From a virus (lineage: Duplodnaviria; Caudoviricetes), in the IMG/VR virus record IMGVR_UViG_3300014208_000024, positions 128,001 to 192,000 of that record: DNA of 64,000 nt. One strand, 5' to 3'. The translations under genes and the position numbers were made by a program. The notes below the pieces were generated by a model, which saw only the letters and a list, made by a program, of their open reading frames with translations, did not search any database and was not told where the DNA came from. Shown one piece after another: positions 28,272-40,180 of the stretch (positions are counted from its first letter, which is position 1; the number at the start of each line of letters is the position of its first letter).

Positions 28272-30701
28272 TTAAAAATCCGAAAAATTTGCACCAGTTG
28301 GTAAAACTTGAAATTCTAAATCTATAAATTCGGCAGTGCGAGTTGGCTTAAGCTGAATCTTTCCAATTAACATATTTCTGTCGATTGTTTCTGAAGTGTT
28401 GTTGCTGTCGTCCATAACTACACGAAATGCTGTAAGTCCCCTCTGGTTCTGTATTTGCAATAAAATAGGCTCTACTTTTGCTAAGAACTGATCTCTTAAA
28501 GTTTGATCATTTTGTTCGAACAACAGTGTTAATGCTGCAGCAGAAATAAGTCTTCTAACTTGTAACAATAATCTTCTGATGTTAATTCTGTCAAGAGCAG
28601 ATTGTCTTTGTTGAAGAGTTTTTTGTCCCCAAATTACAATACCTTGTTGTACAAAACTTGCAATAGGATTAATTCTACCTTCATAAAGAACATCTCTTTC
28701 TTCTTTCGAAAGTTTAATATCTGTTCTTTTAACACTTGTTCCAGCTGTAGCTCTATTCAAACCAGCAGGAGCAAACCAAGGTGCTGCAACGTTATCTGTC
28801 AAAGCTAATGTTTTAATTGCCAATAATGTTGGAGCTTGATATGTATATTTTCCAGAAATTGGGTCTTCAATTTGAATCCATGGCCAGTAAGTACATGCAT
28901 AATTAGAATCAATTCCAGTAGCTTCAAGAGTTGAAACTGCTTCTTCTGGTGTTCCTCTTTCTGTTGTTCCATCAGTAGTAGAGAAAACTGAAAGTCTTGG
29001 AGAATCTATTACATAAAGAATATCAGCTCTGTCTTCGATCATACTCAAAGCATATTTAACTATTCCAGTGTTATTTTGATAATCAACACCAGGAGTTGCA
29101 AACAAATTAATATCTACTGCTTCTGGATTTGAAAATACAGCAATAGCTTCTAAAAATTTAGTATAATTATCAGTTTCGCTTTCAACAAATTCTAAATAAG
29201 GGTATTCAAAAGTTTTATATTTATTAAAACCGTCAAAACCACCAGCAGGAACCAATGTAAATTTAAGCTTAGCTTTATCTACAATTCCAGATGTAGCAGT
29301 TGTTGTATAAGCTGTTAAAGAAACTTTATCTCCAGAAACATAATATCTTGAATCTGCTGTATTTTCCATGTGGAAACCTTTTGTATTCGTAGTTGCAGAT
29401 GATACATCGCCTCCATGATAAACAAACAAATCGGCTTCTATTGATTTTACAGAATTTCTAACAGATACAATGCTTGAAGTTAAGCTTGTATATCCTAATT
29501 CAGAAATTCCAAGATATGTTTTAAAAGTTGAATCTCCTGAAAGATAAAGTGTTTTATAAAATATATTAGGAATTGTTCCAGCATCTCCAGAAGCGCTAGC
29601 TGCACCTCTTAAAACATAACCTTCAAAACCTGCAGGAACAGAATTTTCTGGATATCTATTAGCTAATTCAACTGTAATAAACATTGATTTACTTGGATAT
29701 TCCTCATCCCATGTTCCAATGTATTTTCCAATAAAATTAGAAGCAGTTTCGTCCAATGTCACATTTGAATATTTTTCTAATGCTGTTTGAGATGCTGTTG
29801 CATCAGTATCTTCAAATCTTCTAATTATAACGTCAAAAGTATAATTGTTTACATCTAAATTTGCAATTGATATTTTTATTTCTCTTGCAGATGCATCACC
29901 ATCAGAAATAGTGTGAAATCTGAATAATCTATGAACTTCTCCACCAACAACTCTGGAAACAATCCAAGGTGTTATTGAATGAGCATAATCATCTCCATAA
30001 TCTGTATATCCACCATCAGTTTTGTAAGTAAGGGTAGATTGAAGCGCATTTACTCCTGAAAATAAATTCCTAGCAACACCTTCTCTGATAAAATGTGGAT
30101 AAATTTCTTCAACATAAAGATTAATTGCACCTGTTATTACTTTTGGATTTTTTCCAAAAACTTTAACAATATAATTATCTTTTGTTTCATCTAAAGAAAC
30201 TGAAAGTCCGTTTGTATATGCTGTTAAAGGACCAGTTGCTGCACTTATAACAAAATCACTTAAAGGATTTACCATTCCAGTTGTTCCGATTGTAACAGCT
30301 GATTGAACATCAAAATATTTTGTACCAGTACTACTTTGTTTACTTCTTAAAATTGCTAAAGTAGAGCCAGAATAACTATTTGTTGTTGCAGTAGAAGCGC
30401 TTAATGTAATAAGCCAAGCTGGAGAGTTTGTAAAACCACCCTGTCCCAAAACTCTGGAGATTGTTAAATCATTAGCTTGTGCTAAAAAAGAATTAGCTAC
30501 ATAACCTAAAGGAAAATCTGGACTTGTTCCTCCAAATCTTAATGCAAATTCATCTGCGCTAGATACTTTTATTGCTTCAAAAGCAGGTCCTTTTTCTGTT
30601 TTTCCAGCTAAACCAAGTCTGGTGATACCAATTCTAGAAGCAAATACTGAGAAATCTTGTTCTCTTGTATAAACTCCTGGGCTAACGAATATTGTGGCCA
30701 T
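28272..30701 (-). CDS. gp18: Tail sheath protein (T4 gp18-like)
   Basis: MATIFVSPGVYTREQD; PWFAPAGLNR; LYEGRINPI; IWGQKTLQ; LDRINIRRLL; LKPTRTAEFI. Confidence 0.92.
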   Translation of the reverse strand: MATIFVSPGVYTREQDFSVFASRIGITRLGLAGKTEKGPAFEAIKVSSADEFALRFGGTSPDFPLGYVANSFLAQANDLTISRVLGQGGFTNSPAWLITLSASTATTNSYSGSTLAILRSKQSSTGTKYFDVQSAVTIGTTGMVNPLSDFVISAATGPLTAYTNGLSVSLDETKDNYIVKVFGKNPKVITGAINLYVEEIYPHFIREGVARNLFSGVNALQSTLTYKTDGGYTDYGDDYAHSITPWIVSRVVGGEVHRLFRFHTISDGDASAREIKISIANLDVNNYTFDVIIRRFEDTDATASQTALEKYSNVTLDETASNFIGKYIGTWDEEYPSKSMFITVELANRYPENSVPAGFEGYVLRGAASASGDAGTIPNIFYKTLYLSGDSTFKTYLGISELGYTSLTSSIVSVRNSVKSIEADLFVYHGGDVSSATTNTKGFHMENTADSRYYVSGDKVSLTAYTTTATSGIVDKAKLKFTLVPAGGFDGFNKYKTFEYPYLEFVESETDNYTKFLEAIAVFSNPEAVDINLFATPGVDYQNNTGIVKYALSMIEDRADILYVIDSPRLSVFSTTDGTTERGTPEEAVSTLEATGIDSNYACTYWPWIQIEDPISGKYTYQAPTLLAIKTLALTDNVAAPWFAPAGLNRATAGTSVKRTDIKLSKEERDVLYEGRINPIASFVQQGIVIWGQKTLQQRQSALDRINIRRLLLQVRRLISAAALTLLFEQNDQTLRDQFLAKVEPILLQIQNQRGLTAFRVVMDDSNNTSETIDRNMLIGKIQLKPTRTAEFIDLEFQVLPTGANFSDF

Positions 30702-30759: not shown

Positions 30760-31470
30760 TTATTTCTCAGAAATTTTAATAGAAATTTTCTTTATCGTAT
30801 TTACTTTCTCAAAATCTGTAGGGTCAACTATTTTTCCTAAAATAGTAACAGGGACTGAAATTTGATAAACTCTCTCTGAACTAATATCATCTAAAGACGA
30901 TTCATCACTGGGTTCCCCCATCTTTAAAGCAATATCATAACCATTAGCTTTTATATATCCTTGGCCGTTACTATATGCTCTATCCAACATCATTTCATAA
31001 AAATCATCTACATCTTCCATATAATGACCTACAAATTTTACATCAAATTCAATATCAACATATGCTGGTTGTGGAATTTTATATAAATCATATCCCTTTA
31101 ATGTACCATCAAATGTTGGAACTTTCACAAAAGTAAACATTTTTTTATTCGGTATAGTATATTTATTTGGAGCCGTTCCTCTTTTTACTGCAGTTCTTAT
31201 TAAAGCAATAAATGGTCTTGCCATTTCTTCTCCATTTTCTGATCTCATCTCTTTCCAATTCATTTTTCTTTCAGCCCACAACTCTTGAGAAATATAAACT
31301 ACTGGAACTCTTCTTGACAGTCCGTTTTCCATAATCAAATGTAAATTTTGACTTTCAATAAATTGTTTAAAACCTAAACTTAAATCTTCGATATTAAGAC
31401 GTTGTGGTAAAAAGTTGTGGTTTTTAAACTGATTATCAAGGTTTTTACCTATGTTTCTTAAAGCACTCAT
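30760..31470 (-). CDS. Tail terminator / sheath stabiliser (T4 gp15/gp3-like)
   Basis: VPVVY..ELW..ARPFIALIRT..IPQPAYVDIEFDV; position next to sheath and neck genes. Confidence 0.55.
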   Translation of the reverse strand: MSALRNIGKNLDNQFKNHNFLPQRLNIEDLSLGFKQFIESQNLHLIMENGLSRRVPVVYISQELWAERKMNWKEMRSENGEEMARPFIALIRTAVKRGTAPNKYTIPNKKMFTFVKVPTFDGTLKGYDLYKIPQPAYVDIEFDVKFVGHYMEDVDDFYEMMLDRAYSNGQGYIKANGYDIALKMGEPSDESSLDDISSERVYQISVPVTILGKIVDPTDFEKVNTIKKISIKISEK

Positions 31471-31499
31471 TAATTTTTATTATAAATAGTGAAAAAATA

Positions 31500-31531
31500 T
31501 TTGCTTTAAAACTATTTTTTTTTTATATTTG
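31500..31531 (+). promoter_or_regulatory. Consensus Bacteroidota promoter with no downstream ORF
   Basis: TTTG(31500-31503)-N20-TATATTTG(31524-31531). Confidence 0.7.
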
Positions 31532-31534
31532 CTC

Positions 31535-31830
31535 TGAAATTATTTTTTACTTATAGATAGACGGCTAAAAACACCTGATCTATATTTTAAGTCCATCAAG
31601 GGAACCAATTTGGACACTGGAGAACAACAGGAACAAACCAGGGAGGCGATTTACTTACAATCGATAGTGTTCCAAGCCAATCAAGGTAAGTGATTAGATT
31701 GGTTGCAAAGGAGGGGGGCGATACTCAAGAAAGTATATATTCCTTATACCATAAATGCAGAGTTCTCAAATCTAAGTAAATTTTGCTTGGGTAAGGGGGA
31801 ACTCTGCTTCGAAAAAAGGCTCAATCTAAG
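31535..31830 (+). ncRNA. Candidate structured non-coding RNA, family unknown
   Basis: No ATG-started ORF; 105/260 GC by hand count over 31561-31820; at least six helices, including 31757-31767/31797-31807 (11 bp); G-U pairs favour the plus strand. Ends approximate. Confidence 0.6.
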
Positions 31831-31891
31831 AAAATATTCCTAAGTAACTTGTATATATAAAAGTAACTTATATTAATATAAGGGCAAATTT

Positions 31892-32458
31892 TTACCTTCC
31901 TTTCATAATGTCTTCATCAACTTCTACTCCTTTAATTGTAATATAGAATCTTCTATCTCCAGCCCAAGAGTGTTTATTAGAAATTTGAGAATATCCATCA
32001 TCAATTATTTGAAAAAACTGACCTTTATAATTAACATAATCCCCCATTTTAATTTTAGTGATTATTATATTTCCATCTTCTCTTTCAATTAAATCTAATT
32101 CTCTTATTTGTTCTAAATATATATGTGCAGTTAAATTACCAAAACCTTTTTTAGTAAGACCACCTTTAGTTTGATAAGAAGGATCAGTTACTTCTACGTT
32201 TATTCTACCAAAAATTTCTATTGGAGATAAATAATGTTTTATTTTTGCTTCTCCATATAAAGGATGAACCTTAGTTTTTTTATAATCGATTTTAAATAAG
32301 AGAAAACTTGTTTGTAATATTTCCTCAGTAATTTCTCTTCCAGTATTTGTAAAAAAATCTGCCTCTTTATCAGAAAAAAATGTTTTCAAACCCTTTACGT
32401 CATGTAAAAGTTTAGATACATCTTCTTGATTTTTTCCTATTTCGTTTATATCAGCCAT
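31892..32458 (-). CDS. Neck/head-closure protein (T4 gp14-like)
   Basis: TKVHPLYGEA..K....IEIFGRI..GNLTAHIY..IKMGDYV; follows the gp13-like gene. Confidence 0.6.
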   Translation of the reverse strand: MADINEIGKNQEDVSKLLHDVKGLKTFFSDKEADFFTNTGREITEEILQTSFLLFKIDYKKTKVHPLYGEAKIKHYLSPIEIFGRINVEVTDPSYQTKGGLTKKGFGNLTAHIYLEQIRELDLIEREDGNIIITKIKMGDYVNYKGQFFQIIDDGYSQISNKHSWAGDRRFYITIKGVEVDEDIMKGR

Positions 32459-32464
32459 ATTGTT

Positions 32465-33667
32465 TTACCACAAATAAAGTCCCATTGGACCATAACTTAA
32501 TGCTTTGTTTACATTTTCCTGGACTAAAGCTCTTTTTTCCATGATCTTGTCATAGCTTAATTCTTCCAATTGAAGTTTTAATTCTTCTTTTAAATCTTTT
32601 TTATCTTCTCTTGCAGTGGAAATTAAATCATCTTTATTAAGAGTCATTTCTGCATCTGGTATTGGAAGTTGTCCATTAAATTTTCCCCTTATACCTATTC
32701 CTAGTAATTCTTTTGACAGTGCTTGGGCATATTTTTTAACCCATGTTTGTGCCATAGAATTTAATTGCATAAAAGATAAATAATTTAGTTTTACTTGAGC
32801 TGGAGAAGAAACCAACCCATTTCCTTGATATCCTTGTGATATTTGAGTTTGAGAATATCCTGTCCATCCAGGATTAGCTGAATTTCCAGAATAATCTGGA
32901 TTTCCATAATTTCCAGATCTATCATAGTAATAATAAAACACAGTTCCAGGTGTTCCAGCACCCCCTCCAATTCCACCAGCATTATCACCACTTCCTATAC
33001 CATTATTTGGTCTTGGTATTGGATAAAGTGTTAAAACTTTTGTACCATCAGCTCCTGGCCTTATTAAATATGAATATTCAGCTCCTCTAACTCTATTTCT
33101 TAATTCAGCAGCCTGAGCAGTCATAATTGTATCAAAAACTGGCATTACATGATAAAGAGTGTGTCCAGCAAATGAAGCACCGAATTCAGAAAAAGCAATG
33201 TTTGTATTAGCGAATGGATCTAAACCAAATAAATTAATAAAAGAAGGAGTAAACCATAAAACATCGTTTACTTCACGATTTTGTGGAATTATATAATGTT
33301 GTGTTCCAGCAGTTAAAACTATAGATGTTAATTTTAACTCTCTAGTTCCATTAGCACCCAATCCCGCTTGTTCTGCAATAGCTTTTCCGAAACTTTCTTC
33401 AAAATATAAACTATTTGAAACATATTTCATTGTAAAATCTATGTCTGAGGATAAACCTAACATTTCTCCTAATCTATTTACGAGAACCCAATTGTTTATA
33501 TATGTAGAATATTCCTCTATAGATTCACAAATACATTCTTCTATTTGTTCATCTAATAGTTCAACTTGCATTACGGGGGCACCGATTTTCCTTCTTATTC
33601 TATTAATAAGAGAAGTTTTATCAGTTTCTGACATTCCCGAAAGACATCTATCTGTGCAAAATGACAT
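32465..33667 (-). CDS. Neck/head-tail adaptor protein (T4 gp13-like)
   Basis: IRRKIGAPVMQVELLDEQIEECI; WVKKYAQALSKELLG..RGKF.G.LPIP...LN.DDL. Confidence 0.75.
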   Translation of the reverse strand: MSFCTDRCLSGMSETDKTSLINRIRRKIGAPVMQVELLDEQIEECICESIEEYSTYINNWVLVNRLGEMLGLSSDIDFTMKYVSNSLYFEESFGKAIAEQAGLGANGTRELKLTSIVLTAGTQHYIIPQNREVNDVLWFTPSFINLFGLDPFANTNIAFSEFGASFAGHTLYHVMPVFDTIMTAQAAELRNRVRGAEYSYLIRPGADGTKVLTLYPIPRPNNGIGSGDNAGGIGGGAGTPGTVFYYYYDRSGNYGNPDYSGNSANPGWTGYSQTQISQGYQGNGLVSSPAQVKLNYLSFMQLNSMAQTWVKKYAQALSKELLGIGIRGKFNGQLPIPDAEMTLNKDDLISTAREDKKDLKEELKLQLEELSYDKIMEKRALVQENVNKALSYGPMGLYLW

Positions 33668-34061: not shown

Positions 34062-35558
34062 TTAAAGTATAAGTTCATATTTAAATTTTCCACAATCCCA
34101 AATTCTATCATATTTTAACATTTGCATCATTTCCCATTCTGTTTTTTTTTCGTCATAAATTTCTGGAAATTTCTTTTTTAATGATGATTTTCCAAAAGAG
34201 AATTTGTGAAATCTTTTAAATCTACTAACTTTAGAATTATAATATGTATAGTCAGGTTTAAGAATTTGTGTTAATATAAATCCCGTCTTTGTATATAAAT
34301 TATTTTCTTTATTTAATGTCCATCTTCTATCGGCAAAACTTATTATTTTATTGGGATTATAATTTTTTATAAAAAATTTTAATATCTTACCAAAAATTCC
34401 AGGAACATTATAATTAAAATTTACACAGAATCTTTTAAGCTCAAACAAATCATTGTTTTTATTTTTTCCGTTCATTTGTCTTATATTGTCAAACGTCATT
34501 ACTGCAATTAATTCATTATTAAAAAAAGCACCTAATTTTATATTTGATTTATCTTCTCCTTGAATATGATATTTATTTAAAAAGATATCTTTTTCAATAG
34601 AATTTAATTCTTTTATTTGGCAACTTCTTGCATGAATATTTTTAAGATTTGATTTTTGAAATATATGTTTTAATTTATTTTTTACTATTTCATTTTTTAG
34701 TTCCCATTCATCTTCTGTAATGTGTATAAGAAAATAACCTTTTTTATTCATTAAATTTGTTTTATTTAAATGAAAATTTTTTAATTTACCTCCATAATTT
34801 TCGGTATGATATAAGTTTCCATTAAATTCTATTCCTATTTTATTTGTATGATTTATTATATCTATTTCTACACCACTTAAAAATTTTCTATTATTATTAT
34901 CAAAATCTATATTTAAAGAAGTTAAAAATTGTTTAAGTGAAATTTCAGGTTTTGATATATATGAATTTTTTATTTTTGTAGTGGCATTTTTTAAATTTTT
35001 TGAGGTTCTTTTTATAAATGATTGAGAATGATAAACTTCATTTGGATACATTTCTTTATATTTTTCTAAGTCTATTTTGTGTTTTTTTAAGTGTGTATTT
35101 GTTAATGTTTTTAATTTTTTATCACATATTTTACAAATAACATAATTATCTTTATTAGATAACATCTTTTCTTTATTTTTTTTGTTATCAACAAATGTTT
35201 TAAAAAGAAATTTTTCTTCTGGAAATTTTTTTAAATATTGTTCTGTATCTAAATTGTGATGTTTTAATAAATGTATTGTATATTGTCCTGAATTGTTGTT
35301 AATATCTTTGGTTTCCCAATTACAAAACTTACACTTTTTTAACTCTATTTCCTTTTCAATTTTTTTAATATCAAAATATTGTTCATGCCAAAATTTACCA
35401 GTATCTATTTTATATTTTCTTTTTATAAAATTAGATGGATGAATTAAATCTGGGTATATTTTTTTTATATGTTCTGTTAATACACCAGATGAATTTTTAT
35501 AGTCTTTAAAAACTTTTTTTGTTTTTTTACATGTTGCAACTATATATTCTTTTTTCAT
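34062..35558 (-). CDS. C2H2 zinc-finger + Hef-like PD-(D/E)xK nuclease + Mom-like GNAT fusion
   Basis: CKFC..HLLKHH, CKIC..HLKKH; EIDII..KIGIEFNGNLYH..IHITEDEW; HIQG..LIAVMTF..FELKRFC..IISFADRRW..LYTKTGF. Confidence 0.7.
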   Translation of the reverse strand: MKKEYIVATCKKTKKVFKDYKNSSGVLTEHIKKIYPDLIHPSNFIKRKYKIDTGKFWHEQYFDIKKIEKEIELKKCKFCNWETKDINNNSGQYTIHLLKHHNLDTEQYLKKFPEEKFLFKTFVDNKKNKEKMLSNKDNYVICKICDKKLKTLTNTHLKKHKIDLEKYKEMYPNEVYHSQSFIKRTSKNLKNATTKIKNSYISKPEISLKQFLTSLNIDFDNNNRKFLSGVEIDIINHTNKIGIEFNGNLYHTENYGGKLKNFHLNKTNLMNKKGYFLIHITEDEWELKNEIVKNKLKHIFQKSNLKNIHARSCQIKELNSIEKDIFLNKYHIQGEDKSNIKLGAFFNNELIAVMTFDNIRQMNGKNKNNDLFELKRFCVNFNYNVPGIFGKILKFFIKNYNPNKIISFADRRWTLNKENNLYTKTGFILTQILKPDYTYYNSKVSRFKRFHKFSFGKSSLKKKFPEIYDEKKTEWEMMQMLKYDRIWDCGKFKYELIL

Positions 35559-39688: not shown

Positions 39689-40180
39689 ATGAACAAAAGA
39701 ACTGCAAGAGAAATAATTGTAAAAGATGAATTTTTAAATAATAATCAAATTAATGTAAAAATAGGTACCGTCGAAAACAGGGATTATCCTCAAACTATTT
39801 ACATTAATATAAGTTTCTGGATTAAGCCGAAAAAAGAAAATGTGGAAAGAAATTTTCTTGAGGGAAAATTAAAAAATATTTTAAATAACAAACTTGTAAA
39901 TTTTTTAAATAAAAATTATTTTTTTCCATATGAAAAAGAAAATATATACATTTATAATATTCCAGAAAATTTTAATTATAACAATAAATTTAATTTCATC
40001 TCATTGGAAATTTATCTTCACACATTAAATATAAAATCAGAAAAAAAATTTCCATTGAACATTAAAAAAAACACTGAATTATTTGAAGAATGTAAAAAAT
40101 TATCAAATTTTTTAGGGAATGAATTAAAAAAAATAGACAATATTTTTTATGTAAGAAAAAATTCAAAATCAAAAGAATAA
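39689..40180 (+). CDS. Hypothetical protein
   Basis: 163-aa ORF (KIGTVENRDYPQTIYINISFW) between promoter and terminator. Confidence 0.7.
   Translation: MNKRTAREIIVKDEFLNNNQINVKIGTVENRDYPQTIYINISFWIKPKKENVERNFLEGKLKNILNNKLVNFLNKNYFFPYEKENIYIYNIPENFNYNNKFNFISLEIYLHTLNIKSEKKFPLNIKKNTELFEECKKLSNFLGNELKKIDNIFYVRKNSKSKE

Follow-up and report, generated by a model that had tools for sequence, protein, structure and literature searches.

What fills a gap of more than four hundred nucleotides (nt) in the otherwise packed structural genes of a huge phage, when a host-type promoter points into it and no protein-coding gene follows? The question is raised by IMG/VR virus record IMGVR_UViG_3300014208_000024 (Caudoviricetes; 372,283 base pairs, 28.7% guanine plus cytosine (GC)), of which we analysed a window of 64,000 nt, bases 128,001 to 192,000; coordinates given here are window positions unless the genome is named. 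A sequence-only reading, made without database searches, had proposed a promoter-driven, highly structured non-coding element at 31500-31830. We find that the gap holds a stand-alone gene for a structured non-coding RNA, which is conserved and supported by covariation, belongs to no described family, and lies in an exchangeable cassette.

The gap is free of open reading frames (ORFs) over 421 nt (31471-31891) and is flanked by two minus-strand ORFs, in agreement with the roughly 420 nt initially reported, and the hand-counted GC of about 40%, noted then as higher than in the surrounding DNA, compares with a computed 0.415 at 31600-31799, where the flanks have 0.25-0.33 and the whole genome 0.287. 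The plus strand of the gap folds better than its shuffles (z = -1.92; minus strand, z = -0.19). The region is non-coding: as had been claimed, no ATG-initiated ORF lies behind the promoter within it, and its sole plus-strand ORF is a frame of 46 amino acids (aa) starting with TTG (31703-31843), and this frame lacks conservation. In each of six homologues of the RNA type found here, none of the six frames has fewer than two stops, and the alignment shows no codon signal, with indels that are not in threes and neither third-position bias nor codon periodicity. A conserved non-ATG peptide, which the sequence-only reading had itself raised as an objection, was looked for and runs into stops in every frame of every homologue. 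The next plus-strand ORF of at least 90 aa that does not overlap minus-strand genes starts at 39689, about 7.8 kilobases (kb) downstream. A cis-regulatory leader (riboswitch, attenuator or processive antiterminator) was considered and rejected, as the plus strand downstream holds only the antisense of late genes.

To place the gap in a wider context, we used relatives of the gp15-like protein encoded on its left side (described below). Protein searches returned 7 loci at first and then 48 viral and 23 metagenomic ones, of which about 45 are distinct, at 45-85% identity. In nearly all of these roughly 45 relatives, an ORF-free gap of 287-588 nt precedes the gp15-like gene. The gap sequences form at least two classes, type A, to which the window belongs, and type B. 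The promoter at the window's gap is of the Bacteroidota sigma-A type and occupies 31500-31531 on the plus strand, with TTTG at 31500-31503 (-33), a 20-nt spacer, and TATATTTG at 31524-31531 (-7); a -7 motif TAnnTTTG with TTTG near -33 is the consensus of the Bacteroidota primary sigma factor (PMC7366714). From this promoter, transcription would be expected to start at about 31535-31540, a few bases past the -7 box. Taken alone the pattern is unremarkable, since TTTG-N20-TATATTTG matched the window 3 times against 6.95 expected. About 40 of the 45 distinct relatives have the -7 box TAnnTTTG in plus orientation at gap position 51-77, and the full pattern in reverse orientation was found in none of the gaps of the approximately 45 relatives. 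Genome-wide, 24 of 42 pattern matches fall outside long ORFs, a fraction that makes up 16.6% of the genome, and many of these intergenic copies sit 5-40 nt before the ATG of a long ORF; the pattern thus behaves like a working promoter of ordinary genes, and here no such gene follows. By sequence, then, the TTTG-N20 promoter that had been described as pointing into the gap, antisense to the flanking genes, is present and conserved across the clade. A scan for sigma-70 promoters found none at the gap. Three further intergenic host-type promoters without an ORF behind them occur in the genome, at genome positions 59782-59813(-), 72995-73026(-) and 338462-338493(+); two lead into (C)CGTATAGAT and the third into the similar CGTAGATAT, and they may mark further RNA genes.

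We compared the type-A set, which consists of the window and five relatives (L011, L062, L013, L009 and L010), to evaluate whether the RNA has a conserved fold. The six sequences were aligned by hand, helix by helix and with ungapped strands, because automatic alignment puts the first hairpin of two of them, L009 and L010, in the wrong place. Eight helices (P1, P2, P3, P4, P5, P6, P6b and P7) comprise 51 pairs, 28 of which show compensatory double changes, while 17 are invariant, 4 vary on one side and 2 contain breaks; in total, 301 of 304 cells are standard pairs. On the automatic, model-fitted alignment 84.6% of cells pair, compared with 31-46% when partners are slid by 1-3 columns, and 23 pairs show double changes compared with 3-9 in the slid versions. 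None of 500 shuffles reached the observed percentage paired, double-change count or covariation score, a comparison that overstates significance in so small a set. The covariation among homologues on which the sequence-only reading had made its case depend is accordingly present and exceeds that of both slid and shuffled controls. There are 19 G-U cells and no A-C cells, indicating that the plus strand is the one under selection, as had been read from the G-U pairs of the single sequence.

The fold, given here along the plus strand, begins with hairpin P1 (31552-31584), whose 5' strand, 31552-60, pairs with 31575-76 and 31578-84 around a bulged G31577, six of the nine pairs being compensatory; its loop holds the conserved motifs AGACGG and ACACCUG. 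It lengthens a helix proposed from the single sequence (31552-58/31578-84), which covaries. The P2 hairpin, GUCCA/UGGAC (31591-95/31611-15), has two compensatory pairs and a conserved AAGGG loop motif, and changes to GCUC/GAGC in L009 and L010. P3, CUGG/CCAG (31617-20/31638-41), is compensatory at three of four pairs (variants CGGG/CCCG and GUUG/CAAC), and P4, GGAACA/UGUUCC (31630-35/31668-73), at four of six (variants GAGAUG/CAUCUC and GGAAUA/UAUUCC). These two helices interleave to form a covarying H-type pseudoknot (31617-31673) in which all cells are standard pairs, with a conserved, A-rich loop AGAACAAMA (31621-29) and, in its third loop, hairpin P5 (31647-51/31659-63; three of five pairs compensatory). 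The automatic alignment supports P3-P5 likewise. The sequence-only reading had suggested a switch or a pseudoknot, with GTCCA (31591-95) competing for TGGAC (31611-15); a pseudoknot does form, from other strands (P3/P4), whereas the supposedly competing strands form the covarying hairpin P2 and the switch is not supported. Its helix 31611-18/31666-74 also lacks support, and 31668-73 pairs instead with 31630-35 in P4.

Downstream of the pseudoknot, the P6 hairpin GCCAAUC/GAUUGGU (31676-82/31697-703) is compensatory at four of seven pairs, with 95% of cells paired on the automatic alignment, and its loop ends in a conserved RUGAUKA; covariation here supports a helix slightly shorter than the 31675-82/31697-704 first drawn. 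A G-run, GGGGGGCGA (31713-21), is conserved in all six sequences, as exactly GGGGGCGA in five and as GGGGGAGUGA in L013, and GGGGGCG has only two copies in the 372-kb genome, the second within a coding region. It is followed by P6b (31721-25/31732-36 or, without the innermost pair, 31721-24/31733-36), a hairpin whose position is kept, whose sequence varies and whose register is less certain. Both P5 and P6b had been predicted at these coordinates and are backed by compensatory changes; an outer helix drawn around P6b (31708-12/31741-45) is not conserved. P7 (31757-67/31797-807) has 100% of its cells paired, with two compensatory pairs and four showing C/U-G changes, and its 3' strand starts with a twin G-run, GGG-UAA-GGGGG. 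It encloses P8 (about 31771-76/31786-91), a variable hairpin that forms in each homologue with a different sequence; of this nested pair as originally proposed, the outer helix is retained unaltered and the inner one (31771-78/31784-91) in shortened form. No helix consistent among the six sequences closes the 5' leader onto the 3' tail, and by eye no consistent partner was found among them for the AAGGG loop or the G-run.

We then asked whether this RNA belongs to a known family. The covariance-model scan that had been recommended along with the statement that no family was recognised gave no match at the gathering score anywhere in the window with the 4227 models of Rfam 15, among them those of RNase P, transfer-messenger RNA (tmRNA), 6S, packaging RNA (pRNA), ROOL, GOLLD, HEARO, group I/II introns, self-cleaving ribozymes and riboswitches. 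At E ≤ 10 over 31350-32000 the only match was a 19.8-bit junk match to a human long non-coding RNA model on the wrong strand, there were no matches at E ≤ 1 in 18 related loci, and ARAGORN found no transfer RNA (tRNA) or tmRNA in the window or in 25 related loci. Bacterial RNase P RNA, whose conserved P4 strands (AAAGUCC...ACAGAA-NN-GGCU) form a long-range helix, was examined as a candidate and rejected, since AAGUCC pairs locally with UGGAC as part of P2 and becomes AGCUC in L009 and L010, and the downstream GGCU is unconserved; the faint echo of RNase P helix P4 does not extend, as had been suspected. A covariance model built for type A (R1) matches 31532-31834 at 304.5 bits, scores 245-305 bits on the six type-A loci and at most 10 bits elsewhere, and shows type A to be single-copy in the genome. 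A loose type-A DNA pattern gave at least 118 chance matches in IMG/VR and two real ones, both on contigs already in the set; a strict pattern recovered only four known viral contigs there, and among 185,579 prokaryote genomes 18 chance matches, none of them homologous by nhmmer. No described RNA of the type-A kind was found in the literature; it may or may not be among the more than 10,000 unnamed candidates in a published catalogue of viral RNAs (PMC10690425).

Comparison with type-B relatives reveals the borders of the element. Aligned by blastn, the window and the type-B loci L059 and L012 are about 80% identical across the terminator gene and on through the promoter, as far as 31533, which is 2 nt past the -7 box. 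The alignment picks up again at 31858 or 31866, just ahead of an A/U-rich palindrome (31867-82) and of the point where a 188-aa gene has its stop codon. These break points indicate that the exchanged piece is the body predicted to be transcribed, 31534-31857 on the plus strand, which differs between type-A and type-B relatives. The shared 3' flank (31858-31891) contains the palindrome and a T-run and may stop transcription in both directions, that of the RNA and that of the upstream neck gene; a consensus terminator scan found no canonical terminator after the fold. To trace the history of the exchange, we reconstructed a maximum-likelihood tree of the terminator protein, in which the six type-A phages fall in a well-supported clade of nine together with two type-B phages and L014 (missed by the nhmmer screen, type B by eye). 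This clade is nested among type-B clades, and L059 (type B) is sister to L062 (type A) with support 100/94. The topology suggests that either type A arose or arrived in the clade and was replaced at least twice, or both alleles circulate by recombination.

Type B occupies the slot in most relatives, in the same orientation (L012, L015, L016, L020-L037, L047-L054, L059, L065 and L069-L079, about 65-170 nt upstream of the gp15-like gene and antisense to it). Its 5' domain, a covarying hairpin with the loop GUUUU..GGGGCGUUG.UUUC followed by UUUUACACUGG, was found in 51 loci, in every one of them antisense to gp15 and equally far from it, and is absent from the window's genome. In the consensus folds of two subgroups, 17 of 57 and 18 of 64 predicted pairs are compensatory. 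The type-A model scores at best 10 bits on type-B loci, so homology between the two types is unproven; a twin G-run (G3-7, 1-6 A/U-rich bases, G4-7) occurs in the 3' halves of type A and of most type-B RNAs, and the string ACACUGG is common to both types. The type-B 5' loop (GGGGCGUUG.UUUC) repeats the 3' G-run strand of the long closing helix, whose partner strand is all-pyrimidine, and the loop could therefore pair with the pyrimidine strand in a pseudoknot or a folding switch.

Other occupants of the slot were also observed. Longer GC-rich inserts lie there in L039 (1913-2500, 588 nt) and L068 (1788-2500, 713 nt), both on the minus strand of their loci; neither insert has a match in Rfam, and they may be further RNA types. 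An extra 314-aa ORF lies between the RNA gap and the gp15-like gene in L019 and L055 (1531-2475 in each), where the RNA gap stays beside the 188-aa gene. Conversely, the slot stays beside gp15 in three loci where the neck gene is not the immediate upstream neighbour: L014 and L017, both type B, and L068 with its unclassified RNA-like insert. In L040-L044 and L056 (gap GC 0.42-0.49, locus GC 0.47-0.54) a type-B-like RNA is kept and the TAnnTTTG box is absent, which suggests that these higher-GC members use a different promoter type, perhaps in hosts outside the Bacteroidota.

The genes around the gap form a minus-strand, T4-like structural block according to PHROG annotation of the window. The tail sheath gene (28272-30701, minus; phrog_23) lies next to that of the 236-aa protein bordering the gap (30760-31470, minus), which has no sequence match in Pfam, PHROG or the PDB. 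Its AlphaFold2 model, made from 8 sequences, has a mean predicted local distance difference test (pLDDT) score of only 56.9 and is to be read with caution; the best Foldseek match of this model is the T4 portal-neck-tail complex (9mkb, E = 4.7e-8), with further matches to T4 gp15 (4hud/4huh, E about 1e-6). The predicted fold supports a T4 gp15-type tail terminator, the label that the sequence-only reading had given this product. On the other side of the gap, the 188-aa gene at the gp14 (neck) position (31892-32458, minus) belongs to no family found in PHROG, Pfam or the PDB, and an ORF of 186-196 aa lies directly upstream of the gap in most relatives; in the earlier description of the gap as a gp14-gp15 intergenic region, the gp15 half is thus upheld by the predicted fold and the gp14 half is a label by position. 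The 188-aa gene is adjoined by a head-tail adaptor gene (32465-33667; phrog_211). Within the head-neck gene block sits a gene for a 498-aa HNH homing endonuclease (34062-35558, minus; phrog_3339 and phrog_559) with its own CTATTTAT box; in the closest relatives, no such gene was found up to 3 kb from the gp15-like one.

The CTATTTAT motif also occurs at 31482-31489 on the minus strand, back to back with the RNA promoter; its plus-strand complement, ATAAATAG, is invariant in 8 of 8 aligned relatives, and the box is probably the late promoter of the terminator gene. In the window, 12 of 16 copies of CTATTTAT lie at most 100 nt upstream of long ORFs in the orientation of the gene, and the motif (often as CTATTTATA) precedes many minus-strand late genes, for example before 30701, 35558, 37375, 41021 and 49374. 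By analogy it looks like the late promoter of this phage, a counterpart of T4's TATAAATA. Searches of 50,697 phage records with the gap (blastn) and the 236-aa protein (tblastn) gave no match, and the sheath protein found only distant relatives there (25-41% identity), indicating that no isolated phage is close to this one. The public runs listed as holding the window's DNA are two groundwater DNA metagenomes, one of which is probably its source.

Transcription of the type-A RNA, the ends and timing of the transcript, its action in trans and its binding of protein we infer as follows. Carrying the primary Bacteroidota sigma factor, the RNA polymerase of the host would begin at about 31535-31540 and transcribe the plus strand, antisense to the adjacent late structural genes, until it stops at or before the shared A/U-rich hairpin at about 31867-82, giving an RNA of roughly 270-345 nt. 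This RNA would fold into at least nine helices (P1, P2, the P3/P4 pseudoknot with P5, P6, P6b and P7/P8) that present the conserved purine-rich loops AGACGG, AAGGG, AGAACAA, RUGAUKA and GGGGGGCGA. The promoter and the 3' hairpin are a fixed frame in which related phages swap the RNA body, A for B. Produced from the onset of infection, the RNA would act in trans as a folded molecule that binds a host or phage protein, as cofactor or decoy, and not by simple antisense pairing; the invariant purine loops, the complexity of the fold and its replaceability by an unrelated-looking RNA are more in keeping with a cofactor or decoy that binds protein than with a regulator that acts by base pairing. For this reading as a whole, an independent, promoter-driven and cassette-exchanged gene whose RNA acts in trans through its fold and protein binding, we estimate a probability of about 0.7.

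Several points weigh against it. The public runs listed as holding the DNA include no RNA run, and the data point to no partner protein, trans action and protein binding being deduced from fold complexity and from the absence of a cis target. As there is no canonical terminator after the fold, read-through into the neck gene is possible. The type-A set comprises only six sequences from three lineages, which inflates the shuffle result; this worry is offset by the slid controls, which share the same phylogeny yet fall far short. Lastly, the best pair counts come from a hand alignment that was fitted to the structure, and the automatic alignment gives the same verdict.

The possible read-through leads to the alternative of a cis-acting antisense or interference role, in which early transcription continues into the neck genes and either reduces or times their expression or runs head-on into late transcription, the folded 5' part serving only to stabilise the antisense RNA. 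We consider this unlikely. The promoter does face against the late genes, with no canonical terminator between fold and neck gene, but about 300 nt with conserved loops and a covarying pseudoknot are more than a stabilising 5' end would need, and the body is exchanged exactly up to the shared hairpin before the neck gene, which suggests that the transcript ends there. In L014, L017 and L068, moreover, the slot stays by gp15 without the neck gene as its neighbour. A ribozyme or self-processing RNA of a new class would account for the complex, multi-helix pseudoknotted fold with its invariant unpaired purines and for the lack of a known-family match; the self-cleaving ribozyme models of Rfam do not match either, however, no substrate or processing site is evident, and the unrelated-looking type B can replace type A, and so this explanation appears to us slightly less likely still. 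It is distinctly improbable, in our view, that the transcript is an assembly RNA, made early and bound to proteins of the neck, the portal or the terminator while heads and tails are joined or DNA is packaged. Packaging RNAs of the phi29 family are made from an early promoter and diverge fast in sequence while keeping their structure, and the present gene likewise has an early-type promoter, a rapidly diverging sequence with a conserved structure, and a place between the neck and tail-terminator genes across the whole clade. Against this, the Rfam pRNA model gives no match, T4-type packaging and neck assembly to our knowledge need no RNA, and RNA type does not follow the gp15 tree, which makes gp15 unlikely as a type-specific partner.

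The region could instead act as DNA, for example as a replication origin with a promoter-driven R-loop primer like T4 ori(uvsY) and ori(34), and a promoter without a gene behind it, inside the late region, is indeed what is found at T4 ori(34). Compensatory changes, G-U pairs on one strand only (19) and a pseudoknot point instead to selection on a folded single strand; the region is also richer in GC than its surroundings, with no AT-rich unwinding element, and unrelated sequence can replace it, all of which leaves an origin very improbable. Finally, the 46-aa TTG frame at 31703-31843 is what could be cited for a small protein or non-ATG peptide encoded in the gap, an idea to which we give almost no credence in view of the stops on both strands (at least two per frame in the six homologues), the indels that are not multiples of three and the lack of third-position bias.

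The trans-acting RNA gene that we favour can be extended to a bolder proposal, which we put forward tentatively and which probably goes too far: a clade-wide "RNA socket", in which a fixed early promoter and 3' hairpin frame interchangeable RNAs (type A, type B and perhaps the L039 and L068 inserts) that serve as specificity determinants in an arms race and are traded by recombination. Such RNAs could, for instance, act as decoys for, or inhibitors of, RNA-binding defence or takeover targets of the host, or they could be new catalysts. If this is true, phages would have a novel means of diversifying a function based on RNA. If the transcript were only a stable by-product, the locus would still add a covariation-supported family, and with type B a second one, to the catalogue of such RNAs.

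Among known systems, bacterial RNase P RNA shares with type A a similar size range, a pseudoknotted multi-helix fold and the chance AAGUCC...GGCU echo of P4, but type A has no Rfam match to it even at E ≤ 10 and is without the conserved regions CR-I to CR-V. The phi29-family pRNA (RF00044), which binds the portal and is required for DNA packaging, is likewise a phage RNA from an early promoter (a predicted one in our case), keeps its structure over diverged sequence and is tied to morphogenesis genes; type A differs in having no match to RF00044, a different fold, about twice the size and a T4-like phage as its carrier.

The arrangement of the cassette can be compared with the PeSL (promoter-early/stem-loop) cassettes that mediate modular shuffling in T4-type phages (PMC2839356, PMC4122927). 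Here too the segment that varies has an early-type promoter at one border, and it has a candidate short stem-loop region at the other, with the break points between close relatives exactly at these flanks: homology breaks 2 nt past the -7 box of a promoter taken to be early from its host-type consensus, and it resumes just before the palindrome at 31867-82. The terminator scan finds no site there, and in contrast to those of PeSL cassettes the candidate stem-loop does not fit the terminator consensus. The described PeSL cassettes lie in hyperplastic regions and have small protein genes as cargo (PMC2839356, PMC4122927), whereas the type-A cargo is a non-coding RNA within the conserved neck-tail module, and its promoter is of the Bacteroidota type.

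A further parallel is found in the large orphan structured RNAs of phages and prophages, ROOL (RF03087) and GOLLD (RF01998), and in HEARO, OLE and raiA. Type A resembles this group in being a stand-alone phage gene of several hundred nucleotides with many covarying helices and a pseudoknot, non-coding, and with a function that cannot be read from its context, and neither its sequence nor its structure matches any member of the group. Large RNAs of this build, folded with pseudoknots and invariant loops, are rare, and those whose functions have been solved have mostly proved to be ribozymes, riboswitches or the cores of RNA-protein machines. The RNA biology of the Bacteroidota is poorly known, and the locus offers a clean test case for early phage RNAs in these hosts: its promoter and cassette borders are defined, and two alleles of it occur naturally. 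Compared with GOLLD and ROOL, type A is smaller and occupies a fixed slot among structural genes and not a place near tRNA genes, and it differs from the whole group in being replaceable by a second RNA type. With its own host-type promoter and a fixed neck-tail address in a wide clade of uncultivated huge phages, where it is swapped as a unit for a second structured RNA, it suggests a selected and possibly host-specific function that is carried by the RNA alone.

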